A stretch of DNA of 64,000 nucleotides from Nitrospirota bacterium (lineage in GTDB: Bacteria; Nitrospirota; UBA9217), in NCBI GenBank assembly GCA_963790205.1, contig CAWBNQ010000005.1:224001-288000 (forward strand). The letters are read 5' to 3'. The number at the start of each line of letters is the position of its first letter. The first letter of the stretch is position 1. Shown here piece after piece: positions 784 to 23,856 of this stretch. A model generated the notes under the pieces. The model was not told the origin of the DNA, made no database searches, and saw only the letters and a program-made list of their open reading frames with translations. The position numbers and the translations under genes were made by a program.

Positions 784-2214
<1,431 letters not shown>

Positions 2215-2271
2215 ATCCTCATGAATCCTTCTTACAAGGGCAGCCACGCAGGGCTGCCCCTACTCTGTCTT

Positions 2272-2682: not shown

Positions 2683-2708
2683 TCCTCACTCCGAACTCCT
2701 CACGCCTC
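2681..2708. repeat. 7-nt tandem repeats (ACTCCTC-like x4)
   Basis: actcctc actccga actcctc acgcctc in the spacer; supplies the GAGGAG RBS region on the minus strand. Confidence 0.6.
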
Positions 2709-2714
2709 GCGGCA

Positions 2715-3726: not shown

Positions 3727-3802
3727 TGCTCTGCGCCTCGCCCGTAGTCAGGCGGCTATACCGCCCCTTGCAGAAAAACACGATGAGAGGGACCTGCCGG
3801 CG

Positions 3803-4582: not shown

Positions 4583-4753
4583 AAGAGAGGCTCCGTCCCG
4601 GTTAATGGTTACTATTGAAACCTGTATTCTAGTATAGCAAATTTGCGGAATAATCGTCATAAAATCCCGGCAACACAAGAAAAAACTTGACCGCAATGAC
4701 CGAATTGCTATAATGCCGTTACGACTGAAATAAAGTCCGGGGAGGGTAAGGTC

Positions 4754-5071
4754 ATGAAATGGATCATTGTCTCCATTCTTTCACTCAGTGTCATGTTTCC
4801 GTTGATCGCGGCGGCGGAAAAAGTGGGCGGCGGAGATCTCACGTTCAGGCCGAAAAATGCCGGACCGGTATTATTCAGCCATGAGATACATGTAAGCAAA
4901 AAAGGCCTCAAATGCACGGGTTGCCACTACCAGATCTTTCAGATGGCGCAAGGCTCGTACAAAATGGACATGTCAAAGATAACCAAGGGATATTTTTGCG
5001 GCAAATGCCATAACGGCCAGAAGGCCTTTGATGTAAGCGACAAGAAAAACTGCATACGGTGCCATAAATAA
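4754..5071 (+). CDS. periplasmic triheme cytochrome c (c7-type)
   Basis: Signal peptide, FSHEIH, CTGCH, CGKCH, CIRCH. Confidence 0.9.
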   Translation: MKWIIVSILSLSVMFPLIAAAEKVGGGDLTFRPKNAGPVLFSHEIHVSKKGLKCTGCHYQIFQMAQGSYKMDMSKITKGYFCGKCHNGQKAFDVSDKKNCIRCHK

Positions 5072-5178
5072 CCGCTGTCGTCACGATAAGGAAGCAGCAT
5101 GGTCAAAACAATCAGCGCTCTCCCGTCGTCCCTGCTGTTGTCCTTTGCTTCACGGAGACGAACTTGGTTCCTTAATAA

Positions 5179-5886
5179 CTAAGACAACCGTAACAGCTCC
5201 TCGGCAACCTCCTGGGGCCGCGAGACCATCATATCATGCCCCGCATCGAGCTCAACGGGCTTTACTCCCAGCCGCTCGGCAAATCCCCGCGTCAGTTCCG
5301 GCGGCAGGGCTTTGTCCCGCAGACCCATAATGTAGGTCCTCGGTATTTTCAGGACGGAGAAGCGCTTTAATGAGATTTTTTCGAAAAAGACCGCAAGAGG
5401 CTGAGAGGTGAGCTGCCTGAGGTAAAAATCCTTGTCCGCGCCTTCCTGGTCCGTAAAGTAGTTCGGCCTCAGGGCCTCCAGGGGACCGAACAGCTCCGTT
5501 GCTTTTCCTTCCAGCTTGCGGAGCGACTCCTGACGTTCTTTCGTGAGCAGATCGATAAGCGCGTCGCCGTCTTGCGGAACGACCGCTGCGAGGTAGACGA
5601 GATGCCGGATGCGCTCCGCTGCTTCCTCGGCCGCTTTGCTGATAATGATCCCCGACATGCTATGGCCCACCAGGATCAGGTCCGAAAGGTCCCGCTTCTT
5701 GATATAGGAGACGACATCGTTAATATAGGCGCTCATGGTCACGCCTGCCCGTTCGGCCGCCCGTTTCCCGTGACCGGGAAGATCGTAGGCGATTACCGTT
5801 GCTCCGCCCTTTTCCAACAGCGGTATAAGCCTGTCCCACAGCCATGCTCCCCGCATGGCGCCGTGAAGTAAGAGATAGGTTTTCAT
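5179..5886 (-). CDS. alpha/beta hydrolase (esterase-like)
   Basis: LHGA..GAW, GHSMSG nucleophile elbow, D and GH catalytic residues. Confidence 0.88.
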   Translation of the reverse strand: MKTYLLLHGAMRGAWLWDRLIPLLEKGGATVIAYDLPGHGKRAAERAGVTMSAYINDVVSYIKKRDLSDLILVGHSMSGIIISKAAEEAAERIRHLVYLAAVVPQDGDALIDLLTKERQESLRKLEGKATELFGPLEALRPNYFTDQEGADKDFYLRQLTSQPLAVFFEKISLKRFSVLKIPRTYIMGLRDKALPPELTRGFAERLGVKPVELDAGHDMMVSRPQEVAEELLRLS

Positions 5887-6034
5887 GGTTCAAGACCCCG
5901 AGCTGCTGACTTCACCGCTCCTCTTGTGTGTTCTCATGAACCGAAACGATCAACAAATGCGTATTGTACCGTGCCTCTGACAAGAAGTAATCGCTCGATT
6001 GTCCTGTGGCCGGCTCATAGGGGTTTAAGCAACT

Positions 6035-6772
6035 TTATTGATTTTTTATCGACTGTTGTACGCTGCGCAACATGCTGCACCCCTGAGGGTCCCTTAAGTT
6101 GCACGCCTTTTGGAAATCCGAAAGAGCAAGCACTTTGTTGCCGGTATTAAGGTAGAGGTTTCCCCGGGAAATATAAGCTTCTGCATACCTGTCATCTAAT
6201 TCGATTGCTCTATTTATATCATTGAATGCCCGGCCATACTCCCCGATGATTGAATATACAAGCCCTCGTTTGTAGTATGCGAAAGAATTAATTGGGTTAA
6301 TGACAATAGACTTATTAAATTGTTCTATCGCTTTATCGAGCAAACCAAGGTTTCCATATACCATGCCTTTATTATTGTAGGCCTTATAGTAACCCGGGTA
6401 TAAAGAAATAGCCTCATCGAAATCTGAGATTGCTTTCTCAAACCGACCGATTTCGGCATAAGCAAGTCCTCGATTATAGTAGGCCTTATAATTAGACGGA
6501 TCAAGGGCGTTTGCCCTCTGATACAGCTCAATAGCTTTTTCATATTGCTTTTTATCAGCGTAGAACATTCCCAGGTTATCATACGCCCTTGATTTATTAT
6601 GGCTCTTTTTTAAAACATCCTCCCATAACGTACCTTCATTTTTCCACACGGCATTGCGCATATAGGTAGTACCCAGGAGAGCAAAAAGGACGACGATCAT
6701 CATGATAAGCGCTGCAGGATTATTTCTGTTGGAAATCATTGTCGAACTCGGGGATTTTTCATCCTCAAACAA
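6035..6772 (-). CDS. TPR-repeat protein, probably the C-terminal remnant of a larger membrane protein
   Basis: One TM segment, RNAVWKNEGTLW motif and tandem TPRs (AYYNRG, AYNNKG); AT-rich; start uncertain. Confidence 0.7.
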   Translation of the reverse strand: MFEDEKSPSSTMISNRNNPAALIMMIVVLFALLGTTYMRNAVWKNEGTLWEDVLKKSHNKSRAYDNLGMFYADKKQYEKAIELYQRANALDPSNYKAYYNRGLAYAEIGRFEKAISDFDEAISLYPGYYKAYNNKGMVYGNLGLLDKAIEQFNKSIVINPINSFAYYKRGLVYSIIGEYGRAFNDINRAIELDDRYAEAYISRGNLYLNTGNKVLALSDFQKACNLRDPQGCSMLRSVQQSIKNQ

Positions 6773-7456: not shown

Positions 7457-8401
7457 TCACATACTGAGTTGCTTTTTGAATTCAGCTAGTGAATGAACAT
7501 AGCGTCGGCTACCAGCATTTTCAGCCGCTTGCAAAATAGCCTTGTCAGTAGATACAAGATGTAACTCTTTATTATCGTCACCTATCATCTGCCCAACGCC
7601 AAATGCGATCTGCATATCCCAAATCCAATTTCTTCGTTCCGGCTTATCTATATTACAACCTGTTTCGACAATCCTTTTTAGTATTTCGCGATAAAGCTGT
7701 ATTGATGTATTAAATTTACCTGAGATCCATTTGGCTTTGGCAGTTATATCGGTTGCGGATTCGTTTCGTTTTGCTTGAACCATTGCTTTTATCACGAAGG
7801 CATGCGCAATGAATGAAGGCATTCCCCTTGAATTAATAGACTCCAGCACAACATTGCGGGTTGATTTATCATTTTCAAGAGGAGCCCACCCGGTCGTCGC
7901 TGGCTTGAGCTGTTGAACGACATACTGCCACATATCTGATACGAATTGAGTTTCAATTTGATCGAGGTGTGACTTTAGCTGCTTGCATTCAATGATTCTT
8001 TTTTCGTCTAGGACACCAGGAGTATTCTCATATATATAACGTGAAAGCTTCGCCAATTGTTCAGTTGTAGTGCTTGATTCAGGAAGGATAATATTGTAAA
8101 GGGCCTTCAAAACCAATGATTCAGAATCCATTATTGTTTTGAGCTGTTCGCCTGAAGAAATAGAACACACATGGTGTTGCGCTCTAAGAGCTAAGCGACA
8201 TTCATCATAATCTGGATCAGTTGTGTCGGCCAAGTGAGCAGCAAGCTCCATCAACACAAAGGGACTTGCATACGCGCCTATATTACGCGATTTCATCGCA
8301 ACTAAGTATTTTTCTATTTCAGCGATCGGGTCTATAACACTGTTTTTGTCTGATATATCGCGATATACGTTTGTGTCGAGCACTACAGCAATGTTATTCA
8401 T
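7457..8401 (-). CDS. PIN-like domain protein (putative nuclease)
   Basis: VVLDTNVY at N-terminus, VLMEL, WDMQIA, LVSTDK: acidic PIN-type pattern with a large insertion. Confidence 0.65.
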   Translation of the reverse strand: MNNIAVVLDTNVYRDISDKNSVIDPIAEIEKYLVAMKSRNIGAYASPFVLMELAAHLADTTDPDYDECRLALRAQHHVCSISSGEQLKTIMDSESLVLKALYNIILPESSTTTEQLAKLSRYIYENTPGVLDEKRIIECKQLKSHLDQIETQFVSDMWQYVVQQLKPATTGWAPLENDKSTRNVVLESINSRGMPSFIAHAFVIKAMVQAKRNESATDITAKAKWISGKFNTSIQLYREILKRIVETGCNIDKPERRNWIWDMQIAFGVGQMIGDDNKELHLVSTDKAILQAAENAGSRRYVHSLAEFKKQLSM

Positions 8402-8476: not shown

Positions 8477-8962
8477 CTAGAGTAAATACTCTGTCACGCT
8501 AACACCTTGCAACTTCTCAGGAAGGACATTTAGTGATAGAAAAAATCGAGCAAGTACCACGCGATGGTTGCCGTCTTCAATAAAGTAGTCGTTACCCACT
8601 TTAAAAAAACTCAGTTGATCCTTCGGCGTACGGCTAAGATAGTAGCCTGGATTTGAATGAAGCTCCTTTAACCTTTCCCAGCCTCTTTTCAGGCGACCTT
8701 CTAGCCCACTGAGAGTCCTATTGCAGTTGTCTTCCTCTGTGTAGAGACGATAATCCGAAGGTAAGAGCTCTAACCAGGAATAGCCAGCATAATCACCGTG
8801 TGTCGTGCCGACCACTGCGGATAGAGGTACTGTCCCAGCCTTTATACGGTTAGAGCTTTGATCAAGATATTTTGTGTGATCAAAACTCAATACCTTATTG
8901 AAGGCGAAGTCAGGTGGCCCTTGATTCTCAAGCAATTTGTGGATATCTGGATCGCATATCAT
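8477..8962 (-). CDS. ParB/Srx-like domain protein
   Basis: YFIEDGNHRV motif; ATG 8 bp after the ATPase stop. Confidence 0.6.
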   Translation of the reverse strand: MICDPDIHKLLENQGPPDFAFNKVLSFDHTKYLDQSSNRIKAGTVPLSAVVGTTHGDYAGYSWLELLPSDYRLYTEEDNCNRTLSGLEGRLKRGWERLKELHSNPGYYLSRTPKDQLSFFKVGNDYFIEDGNHRVVLARFFLSLNVLPEKLQGVSVTEYLL

Positions 8963-8969
8963 TAGTTTT

Positions 8970-11042
8970 TCATAGCGGCAAGGACCTGATAGCGCTTGCA
9001 TCCACTACCCCTATATTTCTGCCTAGAAGCATTTCGGAAGACTTCACAGCATTCAGCTTCTGCTTAACATACCGTTTAATTTGAAGTTCTTTTGGAGGAG
9101 CGGTCGTGGTCGTCAATACATACTGAAATGGACAGTCCGTAGGGCCGCCAAAGTGTTCTTGCAATGAAGCGACAAAACGAATAAAACTCTTGTAAATGCG
9201 CAGACCAAGATCAGCCTCACGCGGGCTATCATGGAGAAGGAAGCCGGGCATACATGCATTGTCGGATACAGTATTGTAGATAAGAGAAGCAATATCCGTT
9301 AGGAGCACAGACAACGTTTCTACGGCTTCACCGGTCATGGCTGGCCCGTGAGTGATCGAGAACGCCAATTCACGTTTATCGAGACTTACTTTGCCATCAT
9401 ATGTGCCAGAAGCAAGCACGGCTTTAACAGAAGCAGAGAAGATAGCAGCCAACAAATCACGACTTTCATTGTGTCCCGCAAGAAGCTTTGTCAGGCGCTG
9501 TTCCAACTCTTTAATTTGGCTGGCAGTGTTTTCCTGCTTTTTTCGGCACTCGTCAAGTTCCTTATTAGCGCCAGCCTGATCCCGTTTTGTGTACCCTGTT
9601 TCCAACCCCTCGTATTTCTGCCCTAGTTCTCTTAGCCGACCTTGTCTCCCCTGGATATCGGACTGTATATCAGTTCTCTTTACGTGATATTTGTGCCGCT
9701 CAGTTTTGTGAGCATCAATTTCTCTCTGAATATGCTGTTTTTGCAGGTCAAGATTCTGCTGAGCCTCTACGCGCTGTTCTTGCTTCTGTTTTATCACCTT
9801 TGCATCTTGATGCTGCTTGATCTCAAATAAATTACGCCTTCTCTTAACATGACCACAATCACGATAAAGCACACCTCCGAGCGAGCAAGTCTGATCGCTA
9901 TACTCGTCAAATGCATCAACATTCTTCTGATTTTTACTGAGGCTGGCATCCAATTCTAGAACTGCTGCCTTTTCCACATTAAACGTATTGTCAAGGATCT
10001 TAAGACGCGCCTCAAGCTGCAAAATCTTACCACCATAAAAATCGATCTTTTCTTGATTTGCCGTCTCTTCCTTTTTAAGCAGGGCAATCTCGGTTTCTAC
10101 TTTTTCGGTAGCATTTTTCGTTAGAAGGCTTAGATCAGGCAGTAGATTTCCAGAATGCAGCGGCATCTCAGATATTTGCCGTTCATCAGGCAATAAATCT
10201 TGAAGGCATTTTCGCAATTCTGAATCAAGTCGGTTTATCCAGTATTGCGGCTCTCGCTTGAGTTTTTCATATTCTTTTTCCAAGCTATCATAATTTTGCT
10301 TGAGCGTTACCAGATTCTCCTCGCCTTTCAGCTCATCAGGCAAGAATAAGCCTAACACCGTCCGCATCATGAACAAGGGGTCTGCTTTTGAAGACCTAAA
10401 GGCAGGGGTTTCTGATTCGCTACGAGGTGATCGCCATTCGTGGATATTTTGAAAACGAGACTCCTGGTCGCGTGTACACCATGAGAGGACATGTCCCCAC
10501 TGGATAGGCTCTCCAGCCCGAACAAAAGCGCCTGCGCCTGTACCAAGATCATCAAGCAGCCCATCGAGACCAAGAAGTTCAGTATACGTTTCCACGTATG
10601 CGGGCCTCGAACGGTCCTGTAGAATATCCTCAACGGCTGCGTCTTCTTTGATATATGAATTTCGACCCTTACCTATCGGCCGCAAAACTCCCCACTTTTT
10701 CCCCTTCACGTGGATTTCGGCTGCAATGTAGCCACTTGGAAAAGCATTCTGAATCAATTCGGTGTTGGCCCGTGTTCCATAAGTTTTTTCACCAAGAACA
10801 TATCGCACGAAGCGACAGAAAGTCGTCTTTCCCGCGCTATGACCGGATATTTCAGCCGATGGATCATCGTCCTCGGTCTCCTCTGCCCAAATGATATTAA
10901 GCCCACGTATAAGCTTAATATCACGAATCGTCACAGGATCAGGAGCAATCCGCTCAAAAATGGCTAGACGACTGATCCAGACATTGGGTTCCGTTTTTTT
11001 TGGTTTAAGTTTTAGATCTTTGAAAATATCCATATCCGTCAC
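8970..11042 (-). CDS. SMC/Rad50-like coiled-coil ABC ATPase (ABC-three-component / DUF2326-like)
   Basis: Walker A GHSAGKT, long coiled coil with central Cys pair, Walker B FLLHDSPREADL. Confidence 0.8.
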   Translation of the reverse strand: MTDMDIFKDLKLKPKKTEPNVWISRLAIFERIAPDPVTIRDIKLIRGLNIIWAEETEDDDPSAEISGHSAGKTTFCRFVRYVLGEKTYGTRANTELIQNAFPSGYIAAEIHVKGKKWGVLRPIGKGRNSYIKEDAAVEDILQDRSRPAYVETYTELLGLDGLLDDLGTGAGAFVRAGEPIQWGHVLSWCTRDQESRFQNIHEWRSPRSESETPAFRSSKADPLFMMRTVLGLFLPDELKGEENLVTLKQNYDSLEKEYEKLKREPQYWINRLDSELRKCLQDLLPDERQISEMPLHSGNLLPDLSLLTKNATEKVETEIALLKKEETANQEKIDFYGGKILQLEARLKILDNTFNVEKAAVLELDASLSKNQKNVDAFDEYSDQTCSLGGVLYRDCGHVKRRRNLFEIKQHQDAKVIKQKQEQRVEAQQNLDLQKQHIQREIDAHKTERHKYHVKRTDIQSDIQGRQGRLRELGQKYEGLETGYTKRDQAGANKELDECRKKQENTASQIKELEQRLTKLLAGHNESRDLLAAIFSASVKAVLASGTYDGKVSLDKRELAFSITHGPAMTGEAVETLSVLLTDIASLIYNTVSDNACMPGFLLHDSPREADLGLRIYKSFIRFVASLQEHFGGPTDCPFQYVLTTTTAPPKELQIKRYVKQKLNAVKSSEMLLGRNIGVVDASAIRSLPL

Positions 11043-14000
11043 CTATGCAGCAAGTGCATATTCTTTGTGTTGCTGATCAAAGATGTGGAGAATAGCCTGT
11101 TGTTCCGGCGATATTAACAAATCGGTCCTGATAGTTTTTATCTGTGCAAGTGCCTTAAGAGCGTATTTAACAACCGCTTCAGCCCCTTCTGGAAATATCT
11201 TCTTTACTTTGAGCAAGTCGAGCCCGCTGTTAATCGTCTGTTCAGCCTGTGCACGTATGATCACTACTGCTTTATGCTGCTCCAGATGACCACGGCAGTC
11301 ACTCCACCGGATTGACTGACCAGTTTCAACAAATAGTCCGCGTGGGGCAGATGCGACCGCCTTTCTGAAACCAGCATGATCTTTCTTATCAAGAAAGGTT
11401 TTGCACCACTCTGGATGAGTAGCCAGAAGTAGAGCGTCAAGGTGATCCATGCTTGATAGGACACCCGCGTATTCCACAATTGATAGCGCAGCTGCACATA
11501 TAGTCCTGTCTGAGACGTTTGCGGGATAGGATGTTGCGGCCAGAGCATCAACATCGATGTCCGGAAGCAATGGCAGGAAGAGACTCTCTGGTCCAACGAT
11601 CTTTACTTTTCGAACTTCCTTTTCTTCCCATAGGCCAGCATTTACCTCTTGCTGGTGAATTTCGTAATTCCGCTTTAAGAGACGCTTAAGTACTTCTTGG
11701 CGAGCACCAGGTGAAATAGTGAACCGAATACGGTCGTTTTCAGAGAGGGTATCGATCTCATAGAAATCATGCCCCAGACTGAGGTTGTTCCAGCCGTAGG
11801 CATCTCGGATAGCCTCATCTAGTTTTTGGTGTAGATAGCGCAGTTCTAGGATGCCTTTATAGCCCGCTTCGGATTCCGCAAGAGTCTTCATGCTGACCTT
11901 GGCAACCGATGAGGGAGTCATGCCTCGGTCATGAAACAGGTTGTATATATCAGTCAGACCCAGCCAAAGTTGACGCATGAGAGTGCTACGATGATCATGG
12001 TAGCGATTACCTATAGAGGTTAGTCCGGCGTTAGTCGTTTGCCACAGTCCTTCAGGAAATGGAAATGTATCAAAACATTTAGATGGCGAATAACGCAAAT
12101 CCTGTTTCAGTGCACCGCTGTATTTACGTGCCCAAGCTTCGTGAAAACCTGACTGGACGACTGCATAGAGATCCCATCGGTCGGTGGTGAAGACTTTTAG
12201 GGCATGAGAGAAAACGATATTTGTTGGGGCCGCAGAGAAGCTAAGGTACTTCGTTGTTGCTGCAGCAACAAAACAATGGGGTAGCCCTTTGATTTTTGAG
12301 GTCATTTCCATGCGCGGCCGAAGGAATATCCACCATTTGCCTTTAGCACCTTTATCATGCTCTTTTTCACGCATTGGCTTTACGCGGTCTTCGACAATCT
12401 TAATCGGTTCAGAATACTTCTGTGCTCTTTCTAAGGGCCAATCGAAAAAATTAATGATTTCTCGCTCAGGTTGCTGTTCTGGATGATTATTAAGTTCATG
12501 CCCGTTGATGATAGGAAAGATTACATCACGATTACGAGGATCCCTATCAATCATACGGCGCGCTTCGTCGTGGTTCAATAAAAAGCCGTCCCCCTGCCAC
12601 TTAGCTCCCTCGTAGAGTACGTCTGCATTCTGTTTCAAAACAAGGGGCGCATCGGTGTCCTGTGAATCCTCAAAATAGGCATTGATCACTGACACTTCCC
12701 GATTGTCAATGAAACATTTGCCCCTCCATTGCCCCTTATGAACGCCAACGAGAGAAACTATTATGTTAGCGCGACCAGGCCACTTAATGCCACGTACAAC
12801 AAAGTTTATTGCGCCCCCCTGAACTATCACCTGCTCAAGCCCGTCTTTTCTGATGTCACCATCCTTGATTGAGTTGGTTGTAATTAGGGCAGTGATGCCG
12901 TCTGGACTGAGCAGAGTGTAAATACGTCGAACGAAATACGCTACCAAATCGCTCAATCCGGTCGGGGCATACTCCCACTTGACGTAATTGCAGAAAGAAT
13001 AGCCGTAAGTACCGCTCAGATGGGTTCCGCCCAAATACGGCGGGTTACCAAGAATGCAATCGAAACCGCCTCGTTCAATGATGTCTGGAAATTCTAGAAA
13101 CCAGTGGAAGAAACGTTTACCATGAGCTATCGACCAAGCCTCCGCAGTCGATTGTCCCTGAGGATGACGCTCTCCAGACCAGTAGAGACGGAAATCGCTA
13201 TCGGTGGTTAGTTTTGGCTGGTTTTCAGTCGTTTTGGGCAAGTAAAACTGAGCAATAGGAATGGCTGCGATTTGTTCGAGCAGTATGGCGTCAGTACTAT
13301 TTGTAAACTCTATATAGCGCTGCTTCTTAATGTCGAATTCGGAAGGTGTCCGATCAGGCAAATTAGAAAGCTCACGCCAACGAGTTAGGACGGCATCACG
13401 ATGCCTCAGAATTTCCGAAGAGTAATTGAGTGTTACCTGCTTTATATTTGCGCGATCTGATTTATTGCGCCTGCGGAATGCCACTGATATGTCTTTGTCA
13501 TCACCAGGCATGGTGATGAATGCCTCATCAGGCACGCCTCTAATGACGTCCTCCCAACGAGCATAGCCGACAATTGCATTGCCGCACTTGATATGATGAT
13601 CAAGGAAGTTGAGTGGCTCTCCAGGGTTGTGGGCTTCCAGCCAAAGGGCAACTTTGCAAAGTTCCACCGCGAGTGGATTCAAGTCCACACCGTAGATACA
13701 TTCACGGATTACGTCCCGAACAGCTGTGCGAAAGGCCGCTGGTGATGGTTGCTCCTCACCTGTGCGGACAGCAGCCAGTTCCGTAGCAATTCGCCGGGCA
13801 GCAGCCAGCAGGATATGACCGGATCCACAAGAGATATCTGCCACACGTAAGGAAAGCAACGCTTTTTCACGATCCGATTCCTTGAGCTTGTCGGCAATAA
13901 GATAATCAAGGGAATGCTTGATTAAAGGTTGAACCAGATCATCCGGTGTGTAGTGGGAACCGGTAACAGCGCGTTGATCGCCCGGCGCGAAATCGAACTC

Positions 14001-15326
14001 CACCACGCCTTCGCTTTGAATAAATACGGGTTTATATTCCAGTAGCCCCTCATAGACTGAGCCAAATTCTTCGACATTGAGAGCGGCGTAGTTGACGCGG
14101 ATCACCTGACCTGTGTCAGGATGCTGGTAAAGACCAAGCGAACGCAGACAGCCGAGGAGCACATCATTGCCGAGGGTGCAGCCACCGAGTTGACCGATGG
14201 CAAAGGGGCTGAACAGGTCCCCTGCCAACGGTGCGATTCCAAGTTTTTGACCAGGACCACCGGCTTCAAAAAGACGAAAAGTAGTCAGCAATGAAAGCCA
14301 ATGGTCATTCTTGCGGCGGTCGGCTAAATAACGCTTCTCGGAGAGGCGGCGCAGGCGCTGGAGGCTGTAGTAGTGCTCGTATATATCTCGTTTAGAGGCG
14401 TCCGACTTTACGGGAAAGACAAGGCCGCGCTCCTCGATCACCATCAGGAAGAGGAGGCGATAGATCAGCCGTAGCAGGTGTTGGTAGTAGGCATCAGGTT
14501 CCAGTTCGTCGGAGACCACTGTTTGACGAAGTGAATCGTTGGCGGGATGAGCAAGAAACCCATTTGCAAATTCACGGATAGCACTCTCGACCGCACGGCT
14601 CAAACCATCGCGGATGCGCGCGCCGGAATCAAGGGAGTCTTGGTGATAACGCTCAATAATGCACTCTGCCGAAGTTTCGGGCGAGACAGGCAGCCTTGAT
14701 GCATGCAACAGTCGATAAAGAACAGCAAAATCGGCAAACAAACCGTCGTTGAAGATCCTATCAAGATCGAACTCCAGGTAGGTCAGTTTGACAAGTCGCG
14801 AACTATCACGCAGCAGACGAAGCACTCGGCCGTTTGTTACAAGACCGTACAGTCCATCCGTAAGGTTGAGATACTCTTGCACCATTCCATGCGCAGACAT
14901 GCGTAGGACGGCTTTTTCGGGCTTCCTATCCAGCCCCGCCGGCTCGCGATAACCGACGATATGAACTGGGATACGTCCACGATTACTAAGACGGTGGGAG
15001 ATAGCATAAGTCTTACCATTCAATTCCACGCTCTTTTGCTGGTATTCAAGCTCGTAGCCAAGCAAAGAAAGAAACGGGACTACCCAGAGACTGCGCGTTT
15101 CCGTCGTGGCTGGATTATCGACTTTGACCGCTTCCAATTTTCGCTGAAAAATACGCCAATAGTCCTGTGCATCAGCCCAGGCACGGACAATTTCATCTTT
15201 CACCTTTCTGGATGAGTCGAAACCAAAGTCTAGCGGACGTTGGCCGTTAGCTTCTTCGAGCCGAGTCAGAATGTCAGGTGAAAGGATGGCTCCTTCTATG
15301 CGGATGCTTGGATAGTTCATAGGCAT
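11043..15326 (-). CDS. Eco57I/type IIG-like N6-adenine DNA methyltransferase (DrmMI-like) with TRD and extra C-terminal domain
   Basis: GSHYTP, DISCGSGHIL (SAM binding), GVDLNP, GNPPY; N-terminal QEYLN..TNG; LRYSPSKCFDTFPFP TRD end. Confidence 0.9.
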   Translation of the reverse strand: MPMNYPSIRIEGAILSPDILTRLEEANGQRPLDFGFDSSRKVKDEIVRAWADAQDYWRIFQRKLEAVKVDNPATTETRSLWVVPFLSLLGYELEYQQKSVELNGKTYAISHRLSNRGRIPVHIVGYREPAGLDRKPEKAVLRMSAHGMVQEYLNLTDGLYGLVTNGRVLRLLRDSSRLVKLTYLEFDLDRIFNDGLFADFAVLYRLLHASRLPVSPETSAECIIERYHQDSLDSGARIRDGLSRAVESAIREFANGFLAHPANDSLRQTVVSDELEPDAYYQHLLRLIYRLLFLMVIEERGLVFPVKSDASKRDIYEHYYSLQRLRRLSEKRYLADRRKNDHWLSLLTTFRLFEAGGPGQKLGIAPLAGDLFSPFAIGQLGGCTLGNDVLLGCLRSLGLYQHPDTGQVIRVNYAALNVEEFGSVYEGLLEYKPVFIQSEGVVEFDFAPGDQRAVTGSHYTPDDLVQPLIKHSLDYLIADKLKESDREKALLSLRVADISCGSGHILLAAARRIATELAAVRTGEEQPSPAAFRTAVRDVIRECIYGVDLNPLAVELCKVALWLEAHNPGEPLNFLDHHIKCGNAIVGYARWEDVIRGVPDEAFITMPGDDKDISVAFRRRNKSDRANIKQVTLNYSSEILRHRDAVLTRWRELSNLPDRTPSEFDIKKQRYIEFTNSTDAILLEQIAAIPIAQFYLPKTTENQPKLTTDSDFRLYWSGERHPQGQSTAEAWSIAHGKRFFHWFLEFPDIIERGGFDCILGNPPYLGGTHLSGTYGYSFCNYVKWEYAPTGLSDLVAYFVRRIYTLLSPDGITALITTNSIKDGDIRKDGLEQVIVQGGAINFVVRGIKWPGRANIIVSLVGVHKGQWRGKCFIDNREVSVINAYFEDSQDTDAPLVLKQNADVLYEGAKWQGDGFLLNHDEARRMIDRDPRNRDVIFPIINGHELNNHPEQQPEREIINFFDWPLERAQKYSEPIKIVEDRVKPMREKEHDKGAKGKWWIFLRPRMEMTSKIKGLPHCFVAAATTKYLSFSAAPTNIVFSHALKVFTTDRWDLYAVVQSGFHEAWARKYSGALKQDLRYSPSKCFDTFPFPEGLWQTTNAGLTSIGNRYHDHRSTLMRQLWLGLTDIYNLFHDRGMTPSSVAKVSMKTLAESEAGYKGILELRYLHQKLDEAIRDAYGWNNLSLGHDFYEIDTLSENDRIRFTISPGARQEVLKRLLKRNYEIHQQEVNAGLWEEKEVRKVKIVGPESLFLPLLPDIDVDALAATSYPANVSDRTICAAALSIVEYAGVLSSMDHLDALLLATHPEWCKTFLDKKDHAGFRKAVASAPRGLFVETGQSIRWSDCRGHLEQHKAVVIIRAQAEQTINSGLDLLKVKKIFPEGAEAVVKYALKALAQIKTIRTDLLISPEQQAILHIFDQQHKEYALAA

Positions 15327-18202
15327 GCCTCGGCATTCCCGCCATCAGGGAGGAGAATGTAAACACCGAGAAGATCCATTGGCAATACCGGATAAACGAC
15401 CTGAAAACGTTTTGCATCCATAAGTGAACTGAAACGTTCATGGGATTCGACGAGCCGCTTTGATTGTTGCTCGGCAACCTTATCGAACTCTCCTCTTAAA
15501 TTATCAAGAAGTTTAAGTTCGTTTTCCAAGAAACCGGTGCGCGCCTGTGGGGTGAGTTCGGAAGACGCACGGGCCTCGGCCAACAAAACCCTTGCCTGGC
15601 CGTGTTCGAGAAACTCCTTGTCCTGCGGTGTGCCGCGCCATCCCCAGAGCAGCATTTCCTCAGCTACGATCTGGTGTTCACCTTTGCTCTGCTCTATCAC
15701 GTTGCGACATCGGAAAAGCAGCAATGTAGTCTTGGTCTTTACCTGCTTGGTGCGAATGATGGCTGCGCGCGCCGCACATTTATCCACGCGAGCGAGGGTA
15801 TTGGCCATGACAAGCTGACAAAGTTGTTCTACAAAACGGTGGTTACGCCCCAGGTAATGGTAGCCATCGGACGTGGGTGACCGGAAGCTTACTTTGACTG
15901 GATCGCCTTGTGGCAGTAAATCCCTCAACTGGGGCGACATGTTACCCATGACGATTCGGTAACCCTTGGCATCCTTGGTGACCTGCACACCAAGCAGGTT
16001 GTTCAGAACAGAGGTCACGAACTCTTCCACTGCTTTGGGATCGCCTATGGCTTCATCCATCTCACGAAGGTCAGCTTCGATCTCTTGAGCCTTAATGGCA
16101 TTCTGGGCGAAGATGCTACGGGATGCCTTTTCTCTCTCTGCGGCTTCGTCAACTTTGCGGGTGACACTTGCCTTAGCCGAGGCGGCTTCATCAAAACTAC
16201 TGAAGTCGAATTGGATCTGGTGCTTATCACGTTTTTTTTCGATCTGGCGATCAGGATTGAGCAGCAAGGCCTGGGTAATCGTGTCTATGATACTTTGAGA
16301 ATCCTCTGGAAAAGGAACATTGATGCCGGTAGCGCGCTTGATCTCGCGAACCTTGCGTAAGAGCACATCGAGAACGATGCCGTCTATCGGGTTATCCGCC
16401 CCGTAGAGTAGACAAGCCTTTACCTTCGGGGCCATCTGGCCGAATCGATCCACGCGGCCTTCTCGTTGCTCAAGCCGGTTCGGATTCCATGGCAAGTCGT
16501 AATGGAGAACACCGGTAAAGTGTTCTTGCAGATTGATACCTTCGCTCAGGCAGTCGGTTGCAATTAAGATGCGCAACTGAGACTTTCCCATTGCATCTAT
16601 GTGCTGCTTGCGCAGCTCGTCAGGAAGTTCACTCGTTATGACTTGAAGGTCGAGCTTCGGATACTTCTTTTTGAGCGCCGTTTCGAGTTGTGCGCCGATA
16701 TAGTTAGCTGTGGCGATATAACGGCAGAAAACAACTGGGTTGAAGCCTTGCTTTAACCAGTCTTCCAGAATCAGTTCGGCTGAAGCAAGTTTTTGGTCAT
16801 CTTTGATCGAGCTCAATTGCTGCAGTTGCTGGGAGAAGTACCGCATGCGTTCGCGTTGGTGTTTTGTCCAATCATTCCGCTCGATGACCTGAGTGGGCGC
16901 GTTGTCACCTTCGAACCCAAATTCAGTATCACGAACTGGGTTTTCCTCAAACGTTTCCTCACCCGCTAAGGCAGTTTCTGCGTCATCTTTCGCAGCAGAT
17001 GCGAGGTTAGAAAGCCTGGTGTTGAGCATCTCGATACCAGCAGCGGGGCTAGACATCACACCACGCAATAGTGCGAGTGCAGTCCAATATTGGACCCGCT
17101 TCTGGACGCCTCGTTCGGAGTCCGGAGCGATTAGCTTACGAGCAAAGTCGAGGATTTCGTCAAAAAAGTGAGAATAGCTGGTTGAGAGGTCATAGGCCCA
17201 CTCGAAAGCTTCACGCTCAGGGAATGGCGTGTCTTCCCCCATCCATTTTTCGACATCGGCCCGCTTGCGCTGAACAAAGTGACGTGCCAGATCGCGGCGC
17301 TGTGCTTGCGAGGAACTGGGAAGGTCAATCATCTCGAATTCCGGACTGAGCAGGCCGAGCAACGAATGAAATTCCTCGGGCTTCCCGCTGTGCGGTGTGG
17401 CGGTGAGCATGATAAGCTGCTGGTTCGGCTTCTCGGCGATTCTGCTGACAAGATGGTAGCGTTGTTGCTGGCTGGCAGAAGCGCCGGTAGGCCGTGCGCA
17501 GGTATGGGTTTCGTCCACGATCACCATTTCTGGACACTGCTCGACAAATACATCGCGCCTGGTATCGGACTTGATGAAATCAATGCTGATGACTTGGTAA
17601 GGATAGTAATCATAGACACTTGTGTCACCCTGTATCTGCCGGTCGAGTCGTGCCTGGGTGTTGGAGCGAATGATGACCGCCTCAATATCGAGCTTAGCAC
17701 GAATCTCGGCCTGCCACTGTTCGCAGAGATGAGGCAGACATATTACGGCAAAGCGTTTGATCTTGCGTCGCTCCAACAGTTCTTTAACGATGAGCAACGC
17801 CTCTACTGTCTTTCCTACACCGACATCATCGGCAATGAGCAAACGTACCGATTCCTGACGCAAGGCCATGATAAGCGGCACCATCTGGTAGGAACGCGGC
17901 CGGAAGGAGAGTTTTGCCAGGGCGCGAAACGGGCCGGCGCCGTTGCGAAAAGCCAAACGAGCGGAGTCATAGAGCAAGCGGGCTGTGCTGATATCTCCGA
18001 GGTCCAATGCCCCTGGCGACGGAAAGCTCGCATCCTCGGGTTGGTCGGCTTCAATGCCCAGCGGCAGATAAATACCTGCGGTTTCATCGTCAGAGCCACC
18101 AAGCGGTTTGACGATCAAAAGATCTTTATCATCTGATGGGAGGACGATCCAGTCGCGTCCACGGAGGGAGACTAACTTTCCCGGTTGAAGTTGTACTGTC
18201 AT
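15317..18202 (-). CDS. SNF2-family helicase (DrmD-like)
   Basis: LLIADDVGVGKT, DETH, TATPHSG, SEGINLQ, WNPNRLEQREGRVDR. Confidence 0.9.
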   Translation of the reverse strand: MTVQLQPGKLVSLRGRDWIVLPSDDKDLLIVKPLGGSDDETAGIYLPLGIEADQPEDASFPSPGALDLGDISTARLLYDSARLAFRNGAGPFRALAKLSFRPRSYQMVPLIMALRQESVRLLIADDVGVGKTVEALLIVKELLERRKIKRFAVICLPHLCEQWQAEIRAKLDIEAVIIRSNTQARLDRQIQGDTSVYDYYPYQVISIDFIKSDTRRDVFVEQCPEMVIVDETHTCARPTGASASQQQRYHLVSRIAEKPNQQLIMLTATPHSGKPEEFHSLLGLLSPEFEMIDLPSSSQAQRRDLARHFVQRKRADVEKWMGEDTPFPEREAFEWAYDLSTSYSHFFDEILDFARKLIAPDSERGVQKRVQYWTALALLRGVMSSPAAGIEMLNTRLSNLASAAKDDAETALAGEETFEENPVRDTEFGFEGDNAPTQVIERNDWTKHQRERMRYFSQQLQQLSSIKDDQKLASAELILEDWLKQGFNPVVFCRYIATANYIGAQLETALKKKYPKLDLQVITSELPDELRKQHIDAMGKSQLRILIATDCLSEGINLQEHFTGVLHYDLPWNPNRLEQREGRVDRFGQMAPKVKACLLYGADNPIDGIVLDVLLRKVREIKRATGINVPFPEDSQSIIDTITQALLLNPDRQIEKKRDKHQIQFDFSSFDEAASAKASVTRKVDEAAEREKASRSIFAQNAIKAQEIEADLREMDEAIGDPKAVEEFVTSVLNNLLGVQVTKDAKGYRIVMGNMSPQLRDLLPQGDPVKVSFRSPTSDGYHYLGRNHRFVEQLCQLVMANTLARVDKCAARAAIIRTKQVKTKTTLLLFRCRNVIEQSKGEHQIVAEEMLLWGWRGTPQDKEFLEHGQARVLLAEARASSELTPQARTGFLENELKLLDNLRGEFDKVAEQQSKRLVESHERFSSLMDAKRFQVVYPVLPMDLLGVYILLPDGGNAEACL

Positions 18203-21200
18203 CGCACCTTCCTGAAAATATCCGGACGGGCTGCTATTTTCTCGGCCAGGCTATCCCGATAGTAGTATACCCAGACTTCATCGCCGCGGGCAATGATGGA
18301 CTGACGCTTGGATTCATCATCCTCCCGAACCTGCGGTTCATCGTGGGGGGTGCCGTCGCAGAAGACCCAGATACGCGGTTCGTAGTAAAAGTCCGGTTGC
18401 ACATAAATGCCATCAACACGCTTCTGAGCTGCGTCGGGCAATCGCAGGCCATTCTGATAGAGGTAATCCAGGAACTTTCGCTCTGTCGACGATGTGGGAT
18501 CGAGTCCTCGGGAGATGGTTTGATACTGGTCCTCGTAGCTGCCGAATCCTGTATTCGTCTGGATCTCAATATTACAGATGCGCAATTTCTCAAGAGCGTC
18601 CTTGATGAGATGTCGGTCTATGATCTTATGGTCGCGCTGGTTGTAGTAACTCAGAAGATCGTCATAGCTTGCCGGTCCTTTGTAGTTCTCATCGTCGTAT
18701 CGGCACAGAGTGATCGCCTGCTCTACGACTTTATGAAAAGCCTCCACGTCTTCAACAAATTGCGAAAGGATACCAAGGCTGCCTTCTGCTGCTTCATAGA
18801 GAAGGATGTTAGGCGCTTCAGGATCACCCACAGTGACCACACCGATCTCATTGGGCTCGGCCTGGAACACGCTTTCGATGGCGCGCTTCAGCGCATGCTG
18901 CAAGGTGATGACACCCTCGGGATTCAGTCCAAGTGGCTGTATCGGCTCGATATGCAGTGCATCGGCCAAATTCGAGGTCCAGAGCTTAACGAGTCGGAAT
19001 TCCTCTCTTGGATTTTCCTCCGGATCCGGCATTGAGTCTCGCCAGTCGCCGGATACCAATCCGATGGGGAAACCCTCGGCCTGTCGCGATCGCCACTGAT
19101 AATTGACATGAACCAGACGAGCCGCAGGCACGTAACGAAGATTCAGGAAGTTATTTTCAGCCGTACGCGCCGCGGCTTTACGCACGCGCTCCAGATGGCC
19201 GCCATCAACGGAGAAATAGGTCCTGATATTGTACCCGCGGGATACCCGCTCTTCCTCTTCGCAAGAAATCCGGTCAACCTCTTCGGCGCGCGACTCGGCC
19301 ATTTCCAGCAGATCATGAAGATGTTCCTTATTTGCGTTATCAGCGAGGTTGCAGCCGGTGAAAGGACAGATTTCGAGATCTTTCTGCTCATCCGTCAGGA
19401 AGTACCCGGCTTTTGTGCTGATCTTCACCTCGGTCAGTGCGGACTCCGCGTCTTGGACCACTAATTGGGTAACTTTGTATTTACGGCCGTTATGGTAGAT
19501 ACGGTTTAGTGGACCGAACTCTCGCATAGCAATGGCGCGCGGACGCGAGATGAACTCGCCGGAGGCATCGCTGGTGGGTAGGAAGATACGAAGCGGCAAT
19601 CGGGTGAAATTGTACCCGGGCAGAAACCCTTCCGAGGCCAGGTATCTATAGGGATAAAATTCGGATAATTCTGTTGACCTGCCAAGGTCGTTACGCAGAA
19701 GATCAAGCTGGCGGGTGGCCTGATCCTGGTTTCTCTTTTGTTTTTTGTAGTCGTCACTGCCCAGACCAAGTGTACCACTTTCGATCTTCTGTGTAGCCTT
19801 TGTAAGGATCGTTCTAGCCGAGCGATATAGTTTTCTCCAACGGTCAATAGCTTCGTTAAGATGATCAGCCAGTTTTGACAAGTTATGTTCGACCCACTGA
19901 TCCGAATACCAGCTTGCAGCCTTTGTCTCGAGCTCGGGAGCAAAATCCCTGATCACTCTCCTGAATTCTGCCTTGAGCGTGTTGAACTGGTTCGGCTGAA
20001 TGCTGAGGCCGGAGCGAACCGCAGGTGTAAGCGGCATCTTATCGTTGTCATCAACGATGAACCGCATAATAGACGGCCGGGCTTCTCCCTGAGCTTCCAG
20101 ACCAGGCAGGCCGATCTCAGATACGGTTAGGGCGTTCAGGTGCGTCAGCAATAATTCGCGATTACAGAGATCGAGACGAGGAGCCTGTACCACTCCGGCT
20201 ACGAGTTCAGCCTGGTGCTGAAAGTAGTGACGGTCATGAGGCGAGTAGCTTGAGCAGTAGGTGAATACCAGCGCACCTTGTCCGCTTCGCCCCCCACGGC
20301 CTGACCGCTGGGCGTAATTCGCAGGATTGGGAGGCGCATTGCGGAGATGCACAACATTCAGACCGCCAATATCGATTCCTAATTCCATGGTTGGCGAACA
20401 AAACAATGCGCTTACCGATTCACTTCGAATACGCTTTTCATCAAGCTCCTTCTTGGCTTCGTCGAGATACCAATCGGCACGAAAGCGGTCTTCCCTATCC
20501 AGACGGGCTTCGGTGTTCAATTGCCCAGTATGATCTTCAGCTCGCAGCCTTTTAGTCAAAGAGAAGTCGCGCCGGTACATATCTCTGAAAAACGCATTCG
20601 GCCTGGGTGTTTGGTCCTTGTAAGAGCGCCGCTTTATAACGTCGGACTTTACTGTTTTGCCATCGCCGAGCTTCCAAACGATCTTCTCGATCTTGAGGCG
20701 ATAAATCGGTATTTCTTCGTTCTTATCGCTGCGTGCGAGTTGAGACTTGAGATAATCCGCCTGTTCCAGCTTCGTCATCAGCTGGACAATGAAGTTCCGA
20801 TAGTGGTCGCCCTTAAGATTAATCTCCAGCCCACGTTGCCGGACATAGAGTTTAATGAACTTGCCCAGCGCACTGGCCGGTCCCATGCTTTTTGAAAAGA
20901 GTTTTGCGGAGCGGTGCAGTGGCTCATAGCGGATGACAAAAGGTTCCCGTAATCGCTCTTTCTGGTCCAAGGTCCAGGGAGGACGCAGCATCTCAATGAA
21001 CTGCTTTTCGTTTTCTCTGATCGCATTCTGTGTAAGATAGTTCTCGCTATGGATGGCGTATTCAAGGCGGAAGAAATCGAGAATCGTGCAGACAAACTCT
21101 CTGCGGTCGGCATGACTTAAAGCGCTCAAAAGCGGAATGTCCCGCCAGAAGGTATCCTCTGCAGCGACTTCATCCAAGTCCAGATATTCTATGGATAGCA

Positions 21201-23364
21201 AAGCGCATTGCTCCAAGTTCGGCAGGATGATTCGCCAGCTTCGCCGTAGATCCGCAATAGCGCGGTAGAATAAGTAAGTCTGGAAGCACTGCTCATATCG
21301 TCGTCTGACATTTGCCAGCGGCGGCTCTACGTTGGGGGTAGAATAGTCCAGAAACGACAGGCCAAGCGCTCTAAATACCGCCTCGCCAAGATTGGCATAC
21401 GTGAGGGTATTCCCGGAAGCTTCGTGAAGAGCTTTGTAAATGCCGGCACGAAGGCGGACCACTTGCACGAAATCGTTGAAATGACCGGCCTGGAGCGCGG
21501 CATCTTGTCTGTTGTCGGTAAAACTCAGCAGCTTTTGATCTTTCGGACGATATCCGGCATCATTCAGCTGATTAAGGATCGAGAACGCCATAATGGTCGT
21601 TGAGGTGCTGCGTCCCTCACTGCCCAGTTTTGTCAGCTTTGTACCTTCGTTCGTTTTCGTGTCAAAGAAGACACCGCCTGTTGGGTCAAAAAGCAGTGGG
21701 GCCTTCATGAACCATCCCCACCATTTCAGAGGTTTGGTTTCAGAACAATTTCCAAGCTCATCAAAATGGAGCTTAACGGGAAACAAGGTTTTCTTTTTCG
21801 AATCCGGAACCGGTCCGTTTTTTGTCATTCTCAGCCAGGAGTCCGGCAAAAATTCGAAGTCCTCGGCTAGTTCCCAGACATCTTCGCCGACAATGAGATA
21901 GCCATCTGTCGCTTCTTCATCTTCTTCTGTTTTTTCCCGAAACTCTCGCGGTTCCAGCCGATTGCCGACTCTGGACACACATATGAACGCATGTCCCGTG
22001 GCCCGGCTGAACACATTTGGAAAGAGAGGCTTTTTGTCCCCTTCGTCCTTTTTGAAGATACCCGGCTCCAGAGTAACATAGCGATTCTCGTCCTGATCGA
22101 GTGTAGTATAGACCGATCCTGTTTGAGAGATGAACTGATGCAGTTTAAAAGGTAGGATCGTGTAACGTTGCCTGGCTTCCTGCATTCGTTTGTTCACGAT
22201 GCTGATCCACTGCATAAGATCGACGAGGAACTGTCTGCAGATCGTTTCTGACAACCTGGTTTCTTGCATCAGCATAGCGACGATCGTGCCGATCCGCTGG
22301 GGGGTGCGCCGAATAAGATGGCCATCGTGCGTATCCAGCGCGACATTATTTTCAATCCAGACAGCAACGGGGTTGGCCTTCAAACGCTCAATGTCGTCTT
22401 CTGCGTTAATACCCGCCTTTATGGCTGCGGCGAGCTCCGCGCCCGATGGCAATCTACCGGAGAATGACACCGAACGGGCCAAAGTCTCGTTTATGACTTG
22501 TTCCGGCGTAAATGGCTTACCAAAAAGCGTAGTGGCAACTTTAGCGACCTGTTCGCGTTGCGAAGCGGGACTCCCGACGGAAACCATAGTGGCCGAGGTA
22601 CCGATGCAGGTCACCTCTCGGCTGCATTTGGAGCGGATGCGGCGGATCAACATAGCCACATCAGCGCCTTGGCGTCCACGGTAGGTATGGAGTTCGTCGA
22701 AAACGAGAAAACGCAGGTTGCTGTATATGGAATCACGAATGGAACGCTCCCGAACGCGAGTCAGGAGCAATTCCAGCATCATATAGTTGGTCAGGAGAAC
22801 GTGCGGAGGATTCTCGCGCATCTTTTGGCGTGCCTCTTCCTTCTCCTGTCCGGTATATTGCCCAAAGGTTATTGGGAATCCTCTCGCGCCGCTTTCGTAA
22901 TTAGCTTTGTAGCGGTTAAACTCTTCCGATTGAGAATTGATCAGAGCGTTCATCGGATAAACCACGATGGCTGTTACGCCCGATGTCCCGGGATGGGAGA
23001 GCAAATGGTGGAAGATCGAGCCTATATAGGTCAGAGACTTGCCGGATCCCGTACCAGATGTGACGATGAAATCCCTGCCTGCGGTCCCAAGACGTATTGC
23101 TTCAACCTGGTGCCGGTACAGTGTATATCCTTTAAAGATGTCCGCCGTGTCGGCATGTAAGGCGCCGGACCGTGCAAGATCCGAGACGCTGCCAGACATC
23201 TCGTATGCGGGGTTAAATTGCAAGAGAGGCTCGGGCCACAGTTTACCAACGCGAAGATCCCCTTCTACTACCGCCCGTAAAGTCGGATCGGCAATATTAA
23301 GGAAGCTGCGAATATAGGTCGCGTAGTCCGAAACGATATGCGAGTGCGTCTTGAAAACGTTCAT
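18199..23364 (-). CDS. large DEAD/DEAH helicase with DUF1998-like domain and C-terminal Vsr/DUF559-like nuclease
   Basis: GTGSGKS, DELHTY, TSATM, SPTMELGIDIG, YAQRSGRGGR; LYEAAEGSLG...LLSYYNQRDH; PDFYY...FCDGTPHD. Confidence 0.88.
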   Translation of the reverse strand: MNVFKTHSHIVSDYATYIRSFLNIADPTLRAVVEGDLRVGKLWPEPLLQFNPAYEMSGSVSDLARSGALHADTADIFKGYTLYRHQVEAIRLGTAGRDFIVTSGTGSGKSLTYIGSIFHHLLSHPGTSGVTAIVVYPMNALINSQSEEFNRYKANYESGARGFPITFGQYTGQEKEEARQKMRENPPHVLLTNYMMLELLLTRVRERSIRDSIYSNLRFLVFDELHTYRGRQGADVAMLIRRIRSKCSREVTCIGTSATMVSVGSPASQREQVAKVATTLFGKPFTPEQVINETLARSVSFSGRLPSGAELAAAIKAGINAEDDIERLKANPVAVWIENNVALDTHDGHLIRRTPQRIGTIVAMLMQETRLSETICRQFLVDLMQWISIVNKRMQEARQRYTILPFKLHQFISQTGSVYTTLDQDENRYVTLEPGIFKKDEGDKKPLFPNVFSRATGHAFICVSRVGNRLEPREFREKTEEDEEATDGYLIVGEDVWELAEDFEFLPDSWLRMTKNGPVPDSKKKTLFPVKLHFDELGNCSETKPLKWWGWFMKAPLLFDPTGGVFFDTKTNEGTKLTKLGSEGRSTSTTIMAFSILNQLNDAGYRPKDQKLLSFTDNRQDAALQAGHFNDFVQVVRLRAGIYKALHEASGNTLTYANLGEAVFRALGLSFLDYSTPNVEPPLANVRRRYEQCFQTYLFYRAIADLRRSWRIILPNLEQCALLSIEYLDLDEVAAEDTFWRDIPLLSALSHADRREFVCTILDFFRLEYAIHSENYLTQNAIRENEKQFIEMLRPPWTLDQKERLREPFVIRYEPLHRSAKLFSKSMGPASALGKFIKLYVRQRGLEINLKGDHYRNFIVQLMTKLEQADYLKSQLARSDKNEEIPIYRLKIEKIVWKLGDGKTVKSDVIKRRSYKDQTPRPNAFFRDMYRRDFSLTKRLRAEDHTGQLNTEARLDREDRFRADWYLDEAKKELDEKRIRSESVSALFCSPTMELGIDIGGLNVVHLRNAPPNPANYAQRSGRGGRSGQGALVFTYCSSYSPHDRHYFQHQAELVAGVVQAPRLDLCNRELLLTHLNALTVSEIGLPGLEAQGEARPSIMRFIVDDNDKMPLTPAVRSGLSIQPNQFNTLKAEFRRVIRDFAPELETKAASWYSDQWVEHNLSKLADHLNEAIDRWRKLYRSARTILTKATQKIESGTLGLGSDDYKKQKRNQDQATRQLDLLRNDLGRSTELSEFYPYRYLASEGFLPGYNFTRLPLRIFLPTSDASGEFISRPRAIAMREFGPLNRIYHNGRKYKVTQLVVQDAESALTEVKISTKAGYFLTDEQKDLEICPFTGCNLADNANKEHLHDLLEMAESRAEEVDRISCEEEERVSRGYNIRTYFSVDGGHLERVRKAAARTAENNFLNLRYVPAARLVHVNYQWRSRQAEGFPIGLVSGDWRDSMPDPEENPREEFRLVKLWTSNLADALHIEPIQPLGLNPEGVITLQHALKRAIESVFQAEPNEIGVVTVGDPEAPNILLYEAAEGSLGILSQFVEDVEAFHKVVEQAITLCRYDDENYKGPASYDDLLSYYNQRDHKIIDRHLIKDALEKLRICNIEIQTNTGFGSYEDQYQTISRGLDPTSSTERKFLDYLYQNGLRLPDAAQKRVDGIYVQPDFYYEPRIWVFCDGTPHDEPQVREDDESKRQSIIARGDEVWVYYYRDSLAEKIAARPDIFRKVR

Positions 23365-23573: not shown

Positions 23574-23856
23574 GTATCTCCTGCAAAAACTGTTATATAT
23601 GGGCAATTATTTGGAAAACTTTACTACAACTGGGTGCAAAGGGCAAGTAAAGAAACGGGCAATTTTGGGGGGATACGCATTTGACGGCTTTGCTGGCTTA
23701 TACTATAAAATAAAAAAATCTCGAAAGATGTTAGAGAAAATGGCGAACAACTAAAAACAATCTAGAGGGGTTCAACCAGCTGCTTTTTTATCAAGATCAA
23801 AATTAGAGTCAGCTGCTAAGCGAACGTGTGCACGCTAGCAGTTTATGATAAAAATC

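Follow-up and report, generated by a model that had tools for sequence, protein, structure and literature searches.

A likely Lamassu-like LmuB-LmuC module grafted onto restriction-type systems

Results

An ARMADA-like operon with a fourth gene

The window, i.e. the whole 64,000-nucleotide stretch of a Nitrospirota genome (contig CAWBNQ010000005.1) analyzed here, carries on its reverse strand a defense-type operon, described below in its direction of transcription. The first gene (18199..23364) encodes a 1721-aa YprA-family DEAD/DEAH helicase with an MZB (DUF1998) domain, assigned by Pfam, whose best PADLOC matches are DruE models; the last 120 residues of this protein give no Pfam match at E ≤ 1 and hold a PD...DG..H pattern that may be Vsr-like. 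The second gene (15317..18202) encodes a 961-aa SNF2/RapA-like helicase that is BrxHII/DrmD-like according to Pfam, PADLOC and NCBIfam. The third (ORF 11043-15326) encodes a protein of 1427 aa, the core of which (11661..15326) is a Type IIG/DrmMI/PglX-like N6-adenine methyltransferase with Pfam matches to Eco57I, MmeI_Mtase and MmeI_TRD, a PADLOC match to DrmMI (E 4e-213), an NPPY motif at residue 761 and an MmeI-type target recognition domain. The fourth (8970..11033) encodes a coiled-coil ABC ATPase of the LmuB/Rad50 type.

On the 3' side of the ATPase gene lie two genes of the same strand (8477-9001 and 7457-8401, 174 and 314 aa) within a low-GC stretch (42%), for which we found no Pfam or NCBIfam match, one weak PADLOC match (E 1e-3), and no homologue in the 35 tail-bearing loci described below; the start pattern of the 314-aa product presumably recalls PIN domains, with no Pfam match. 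Just upstream of the first helicase (23361-25283, reverse strand), two ORFs presumably represent an insertion-sequence transposase pair, and an 81-aa ORF with no clear match in the domain scan resembles what we assume to be a MazG-type fragment. Farther away (784-3747, reverse strand) we take the translations to represent an RtcB-like ORF adjoining archease-like and AmmeMemoRadiSam radical-SAM-like ORFs, the radical-SAM-like gene seeming to be split over two frames near 3376-3425.

Class I DISARM systems consist of DrmD, DrmMI, DrmA, DrmB and DrmC (a PLD nuclease). The window shares with them the DrmMI-like methyltransferase (the E 4e-213 match) and the DrmD-like helicase (E 3e-83), but it has a single 1721-aa helicase-MZB protein where DISARM has separate DrmA and DrmB, no DrmC/PLD gene among the eight neighboring proteins scanned, and scores that stay under the DISARM cut-offs of NCBIfam. 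The three genes of ARMADA type I (YprA helicase, BrxHII-like helicase, PglX-like methyltransferase; 10.1101/2025.09.15.676423) recur in the window in identical order, with its methyltransferase holding the ArmB position, and the DruE-like matches of the YprA helicase fit the abstract of that preprint. To this layout the window adds the ATPase as a fourth gene, as well as a tail on the methyltransferase. In the accessible text of the preprint, type II has a GajB-like helicase as its fourth gene, a C-terminal Vsr-type nuclease on the YprA helicase is a feature of type I, and the main text, to the extent available, holds no mention of "SMC", "ABC", "Lamassu" or "Rad50" (10.1101/2025.09.15.676423). 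Extra genes between the helicases and the methyltransferase of ARMADA-like operons were seen at four other loci (L031, at 4539-6134, L062, L063 and L064), the one embedded in L031 encoding an AlbA_2/HATPase protein.

A conserved domain at the C-terminus of the methyltransferase

The PADLOC models for DrmMI and IIG enzymes stop at residues ~1225-1239 of the methyltransferase, and residues 1243-1427 have no match at E ≤ 0.1 in Pfam, PADLOC or NCBIfam. A charged, poorly conserved linker of ~35 aa (11562..11660, reverse strand; residues ~1223-1255), leaving no room for a further domain, leads into a tail of ~172 aa (11046..11561, same strand; residues ~1256-1427), predicted to form a winged helix with an insertion and C-terminal helices. 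In a sequence search, 27 other proteins matched residues 1250-1427 at 42-60% identity, each at its own C-terminal end, with conservation beginning near residue 1256, and a tail profile retrieved 102 cluster representatives from a search of 1.84 billion representatives (50% clustering). A homologue of the methyltransferase in another genome of the phylum (G310), 70% identical over residues 3-1230, is tail-less and ends at 1270 aa. The tail is a conserved domain and no chance sequence, which confirms the extra C-terminal domain proposed in the initial annotation, whose quoted motifs fall at residues 1209, 1276 and 1295; the size of ~180 aa given there is trimmed to ~172 aa for the domain proper, behind the linker. 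In the protein atlas the tail falls into unnamed clusters of low recognition value, and PDB sequence searches with it returned nothing useful.

At the junction with the next gene (stop and spacer, 11034..11045, reverse strand), the methyltransferase stop codon overlaps a Shine-Dalgarno-like sequence and is followed by a 9-nt spacer before ATG 11033, the position at which homologous ATPases begin. The domain had been described as ending one base before the ATPase start, which applies to the longest ORF, starting at GTG 11042, and not to the conserved ATG. The distance from stop to start, examined in 30 non-duplicate loci, varies from 7 to 18 nt and is most often 12 nt (20 loci); a Shine-Dalgarno-like sequence is present at the stop in 29 of the 30, and the two genes are in frame in 22, an arrangement that suggests translational coupling. 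Stop-codon readthrough into the ATPase, for which the junction in the window is in the appropriate frame, is rejected as a general rule because the other 8 of the 30 junctions are out of frame.

The ATPase and the Lamassu comparison

In Lamassu, a suicide system of three parts, DNA ends are sensed by LmuB and LmuC, which then set the toxic LmuA free. The ATPase of the window (687 aa) contains a Walker-A-like GKT motif, two invariant cysteines spaced as Cx9C, with no CxxC hook, and a Walker B motif of the form hhhhDS. The latter fits the short-Lamassu consensus hhhhD[Q/S/T/E]; the GKT is invariant, but it is preceded by Gx3, as compared with the consensus Gx4GK[S/T]. Lamassu ATPases carry CxxC and come in short (~600) and long (~800) classes, whereas the length found here is in between. 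Three relatives of the ATPase match PADLOC LmuB models (E 1e-11 to 1e-18); the ATPase of the window itself matches none, and the alignment of its family pairs with the LmuB of a three-gene Lamassu-like operon (L049) at 98.9% over 569 columns (hhalign). PDB sequence searches with the ATPase gave coiled-coil noise only, and the L049 LmuB found no structure either. Unlike the JetC models of Wadjet, which are about twice as long, the ATPase is LmuB-like. If this reading is true, the family would be an LmuB clade that has gone unrecognized and, in this genome, escapes the current models.

Type II Lamassu or ABC-3C systems (LmuA-LmuC-LmuB; Vibrio cholerae DdmABC; Pfam MC3 PF20131) likewise have an LmuB-related ABC ATPase after a winged-helix module of ~160-170 aa. 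In Lamassu, however, LmuC is a separate small gene before lmuB, whereas the LmuC-like unit considered here is the C-terminus of a restriction-type protein. Upstream of the ATPase there is no gene for an LmuA effector with an ABC-3C CTD, and the eight neighboring proteins scanned match neither CTD nor LmuA models; in line with the initial statement that a separate middle component is missing, neither an LmuA- nor an LmuC-type gene turned up next to the ATPase in the window. Among the Lamassu variants described in the accessible text of PMC12663957, clade S has lost LmuC and clade O the effector domain of LmuA, unlike the arrangement here.

The tail and the ATPase travel together

Pattern scans for the tail yielded 35 loci (14 from genomes and 21 from metagenomes, including three pairs of duplicates), a set that is biased to close relatives because exact patterns seeded the scans. 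The genomic test put forward with the initial annotation, i.e. whether tail matches precede this ATPase family, came out positive at all 35: an ATPase homologue of 46-67% identity lies downstream of each tail, directly so in 33, ~200 nt away in L030, and behind an inserted 331-aa gene without Pfam match (10531-11526) in L011. In one locus, L007, the intact ATPase gene is closely followed by an incomplete duplicate of its C-terminal region (12669-13247, 37% identical).

As a control, the methyltransferase core (E ≤ 1e-60) was found in 8 of 400 genomes of the same phylum, at loci of which seven were readable in full and one was cut by a contig end. None of the seven has a tail, or a homologue of this ATPase within 13-18 kb, and the ATPase profile has no match in any of the eight tail-less methyltransferase genomes. 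The possibility that the tail is common on methyltransferases lacking the ATPase was not borne out, since no tail without an ATPase occurs among the 35 loci either. Over what is apparently the same sample of 400 genomes, the ATPase profile matches only the genome of the window and a fragment in G331. At that locus (L066, G331:C79, locus 9300-9700), a DUF499 gene precedes the frameshifted remains of a tail (E 3e-5 in a search of 1.6 kb in six frames) and the first ~40 ATPase codons, so that tail and ATPase seem to be decaying together as a unit.

The association was also approached from the ATPase side, with 24 further loci from plasmid, viral and genome searches (G953, a record of L011, being excluded). 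Four of these (L038, L041, L098 and L100) have little or no upstream DNA, and in 18 of the 20 with readable upstream DNA leave-one-out profiles place a tail directly upstream of the ATPase. Four of the 18 tails belong to the subfamily of the window (L040, L089, L091 and L092), five to a subfamily III, and nine to a subfamily II, on eight proteobacterial plasmids and the viral contig L039. L095 has a Type III Res protein with ~165 extra residues recognized by no tail profile, and L049, the most distant of the 20, is the ordinary three-gene Lamassu-like operon mentioned above. The latter lies on a Priestia plasmid (3381-6510), where the ATPase matches LmuB models and the preceding genes of 253 and 162 aa match no Pfam or PADLOC model. 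The link between tail and ATPase extends to ATPases only 25-34% identical, where the tails are beyond pairwise recognition. At the profile level, a broad tail profile matches subfamily II at 44% (E 2e-4, 123 columns) and subfamily III at 77% (E 2e-5, 104 columns), values reached by none of 60 block-shuffled nulls in either case; a narrow tail alignment gives no significant match to subfamily II (0.1%), and no match is seen between subfamilies II and III.

Divergence data from 19 of 32 loci, those holding tail, ATPase and methyltransferase N-terminus, point the same way, with the reservation that kin are not independent. Tail divergence follows that of the ATPase when the methyltransferase N-terminus is taken into account (partial rho 0.66, p 0.0005), as compared with a partial rho of 0.11 (p 0.16) between tail and methyltransferase N-terminus given the ATPase, and the nearest neighbors of the tail agree with those of the ATPase in 13 of 19 cases and with those of the N-terminus in 6 of 19. 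In the window itself, the methyltransferase is closest to L005, L025 and L031 (76-78%), and the tail and ATPase are closest to L001 (59% and 62%). As tail and ATPase gene lie ~10 nt apart, shared divergence could also arise from linkage without binding.

The carriers of the tail are diverse. Among the 102 representatives, 65 were scanned in Pfam, giving 8 HsdS, 9 Eco57I/MmeI-type, 2 DUF7008, 2 TaqI_C and 1 AAA_21 protein, and 43 unnamed; the HsdS, PglX, TaqI and AAA_21 carriers are known from proteins alone. PADLOC names the DUF7008 carriers PglX and two others HmaC/DUF499, and it identifies the carrier in L089 as a fused IIG/Type I-like (Type ISP-like) enzyme and that in L039 as a Type III Res; a DUF499 carrier, P0027, is likewise among the tail-bearing proteins. 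Together, tail and ATPase gene form a two-part cassette at the 3' ends of unrelated restriction-type genes.

In an alternative reading, tail and ATPase would be an LmuC-LmuB pair that bind each other, with the fusion supplying expression only, as a cassette inserted in frame at the end of a defense operon that acts independently of its carrier or with an effector elsewhere, e.g. a downstream HNH nuclease. The functional mixture of carriers (specificity subunits, Res helicases, DUF499 proteins, AAA_21 ATPases) and the differing length and sequence of the linkers speak in favor of this, as does an HNH gene after the ATPase in L044, L045, L038 and L041 (by Pfam) and in L046 (by annotation). All nameable carriers are, however, defense or restriction proteins, every intact locus read has its tail in fused form, and within the close family no particular gene is conserved downstream of the ATPase. 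An HNH gene of this kind also comes directly after the tail-less methyltransferase of L065 (5809-10457), where there is no ATPase; compared with the rhizobial plasmids L044, L045 and L046, where methyltransferase with tail, ATPase and HNH gene follow one another, this locus looks like an empty cassette site beside filled ones. Some short tail matches may be stand-alone tails, which would also favor a carrier-independent pair, but 2 of the 10 examined cluster with longer fused proteins and all 10 are on contigs of 1-8 kb. Overall, we regard a mere passenger role of the fusion as unlikely, though it is the most serious competitor to a tail that tethers the ATPase to its carrier.

Fold of the tail and its relation to LmuC

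The structural model of the tail (pLDDT 90, pTM 0.87) shows a winged helix including the beta-wing; the helices in the initial description of a helical domain are there, but the domain is not purely helical. Two LmuC chains from solved complexes align with the model over nearly its whole length (model residues 3-4 to 162-163) in VIA-align comparisons, 9uxh_D with Z 6.1, rmsd 4.5 and 124 aligned residues and 9ny5_C with Z 5.9, rmsd 4.6 and 127 aligned, these being the longest alignments in both top-50 lists. By Z, LmuC structures rank 26th-39th; PadR-like proteins and a cullin winged helix have the top value of 7.4, over 60-90 residues. Since LmuC scores below these winged helices and no match in either top-50 list reaches Z 8, the LmuC match may reflect a widespread fold. 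Winged-helix accessory proteins of SMC-type ATPases also align, i.e. the Wadjet chain 9qe0_D (Z 6.0) and ScpB (Z 5.9-6.6), but over 88-94 residues only, and these are separate subunits as opposed to a fused tail.

Profile comparisons add to the case for LmuC. The broad tail profile matches an alignment of 15 MC3/LmuC sequences at 63% (E 7e-5 over 104 columns; none of 60 block-shuffled nulls attains this value), pairing the most conserved motif of the tail with the conserved MC3 core, as compared with 3% over ~60 columns for a MarR-type winged-helix control profile. A search of the genome for a PadR counterpart to this control gave no match. The match is unstable, ranging over 5-74% in five half-samples of the tail set and 13-41% in MC3 subsets, and falling to 7% when the narrow alignment is used. 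No direct MC3 match is obtained for tail subfamilies II and III, no tail profile matches the middle gene of L049, the nearest three-gene Lamassu, and none of 46 tails matches the ABC-3C Pfam families at E ≤ 1. The tail is likely to be a distant relative of LmuC/MC3, judging from profiles and the model; homology is likely and not certain because subsampling shifts the probability between 5 and 74%. The proposal that the tail is a fused middle component is upheld to that extent, by the moderate profile match and the whole-length alignment to two solved LmuC chains, with the qualification that the LmuC Z scores are not above those of generic winged helices.

Another view of these data takes the tail for a DNA-binding domain of the ordinary winged-helix kind, one that helps the carrier to bind DNA or regulates the operon and is co-inherited with the ATPase by adjacency only. 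The top structural matches are indeed PadR/MarR-type regulators and other generic winged helices, and basic columns are concentrated at the predicted recognition helix (positions 85, 87 and 90 of the tail). On the other hand, MarR-type profiles match far worse than MC3, and the 70%-identical methyltransferase of G310 manages without a tail. The lack of ATPase-less tails in the 35 loci, the persistence of the link down to the most divergent ATPases, and the joint decay of tail and ATPase start behind the DUF499 gene in G331 also argue against adjacency alone, and we consider a plain DNA-binding role improbable.

A second option would have the tail act as an LmuA C-terminal domain, keeping the restriction enzyme inactive on the ATPase and releasing it at DNA ends, perhaps to oligomerize, as in two-gene (type I) Lamassu. 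Both are portable C-terminal domains that occur behind differing N-terminal enzymes and immediately before an LmuB-like gene, and two-gene Lamassu anchors LmuA via its CTD, according to the accessible text of 10.1101/2025.06.23.660979. The predicted winged helix of the tail, however, aligns with LmuC, whereas short LmuA CTDs are described in the available text of PMC12663957 as bundles of 5-6 helices. Moreover, a methyltransferase that protects host DNA would be an unlikely thing to sequester. No LmuA chain is among the best 50 structural matches in either list, which in itself does not speak against such a role. An LmuA-like role is, to our judgment, very improbable.

Discussion

The reading that we favor, and hold to be probable, is that the LmuC-like tail fused to the methyltransferase binds the neighboring LmuB-like ATPase and tethers an end-sensing clamp to a restriction-type machine. 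In the solved Lamassu complexes, as presented in the accessible text of PMC12663957, LmuC sits between the coiled coils of the LmuB dimer, contacts DNA and helps to recognize DNA ends, and LmuA is held by its C-terminal domain (also in the available text of 10.1101/2025.06.23.660979). By analogy with these complexes (PMC12663957), the ATPase dimer would grip the tail with its coiled coils, and tail and ATPase as a pair would recognize free double-stranded DNA ends. With no LmuA, the tethered restriction subunit and its helicase-nuclease partners may take the place of the effector, and the restriction machine could be brought to phage DNA ends or kept there, also at those generated by a first cut. 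Because natural pairs with and without the tail exist (70% identical methyltransferases), a clean test of this tethering model is on offer.

A wider generalization is possible, and we put it forward more tentatively: a portable core of LmuB and fused LmuC, without LmuA, may have been repeatedly grafted onto Type I, IIG, ISP and III enzymes, BREX-type PglX, DUF499 and ARMADA proteins, making self/non-self restriction machines DNA-end-guided. What we report is likely to be a Lamassu-like LmuB-LmuC module, so far undescribed, that has been grafted onto systems of the restriction type. A full-text literature search yielded no description of an LmuC-like domain fused to restriction proteins in the accessible portions of its sources, including PMC11707656, 10.1101/2024.01.29.577857, 10.1101/2025.09.30.679545 and 10.1101/2025.03.14.643221; Krishnan et al. 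2020, on which the ABC-3C classification is based, lies outside that search and may cover such fusions.

If the proposed tethering is true, the Lamassu sensor pair would be reused without LmuA and wired to methylation-based defense enzymes, and the tail would define an unannotated domain family of 102 representatives at 50% clustering. An SMC-type sensor could then be plugged into restriction systems by gene fusion, joining methylation-guarded, "always on" nucleases with SMC-triggered ones, two control logics that are usually kept apart.
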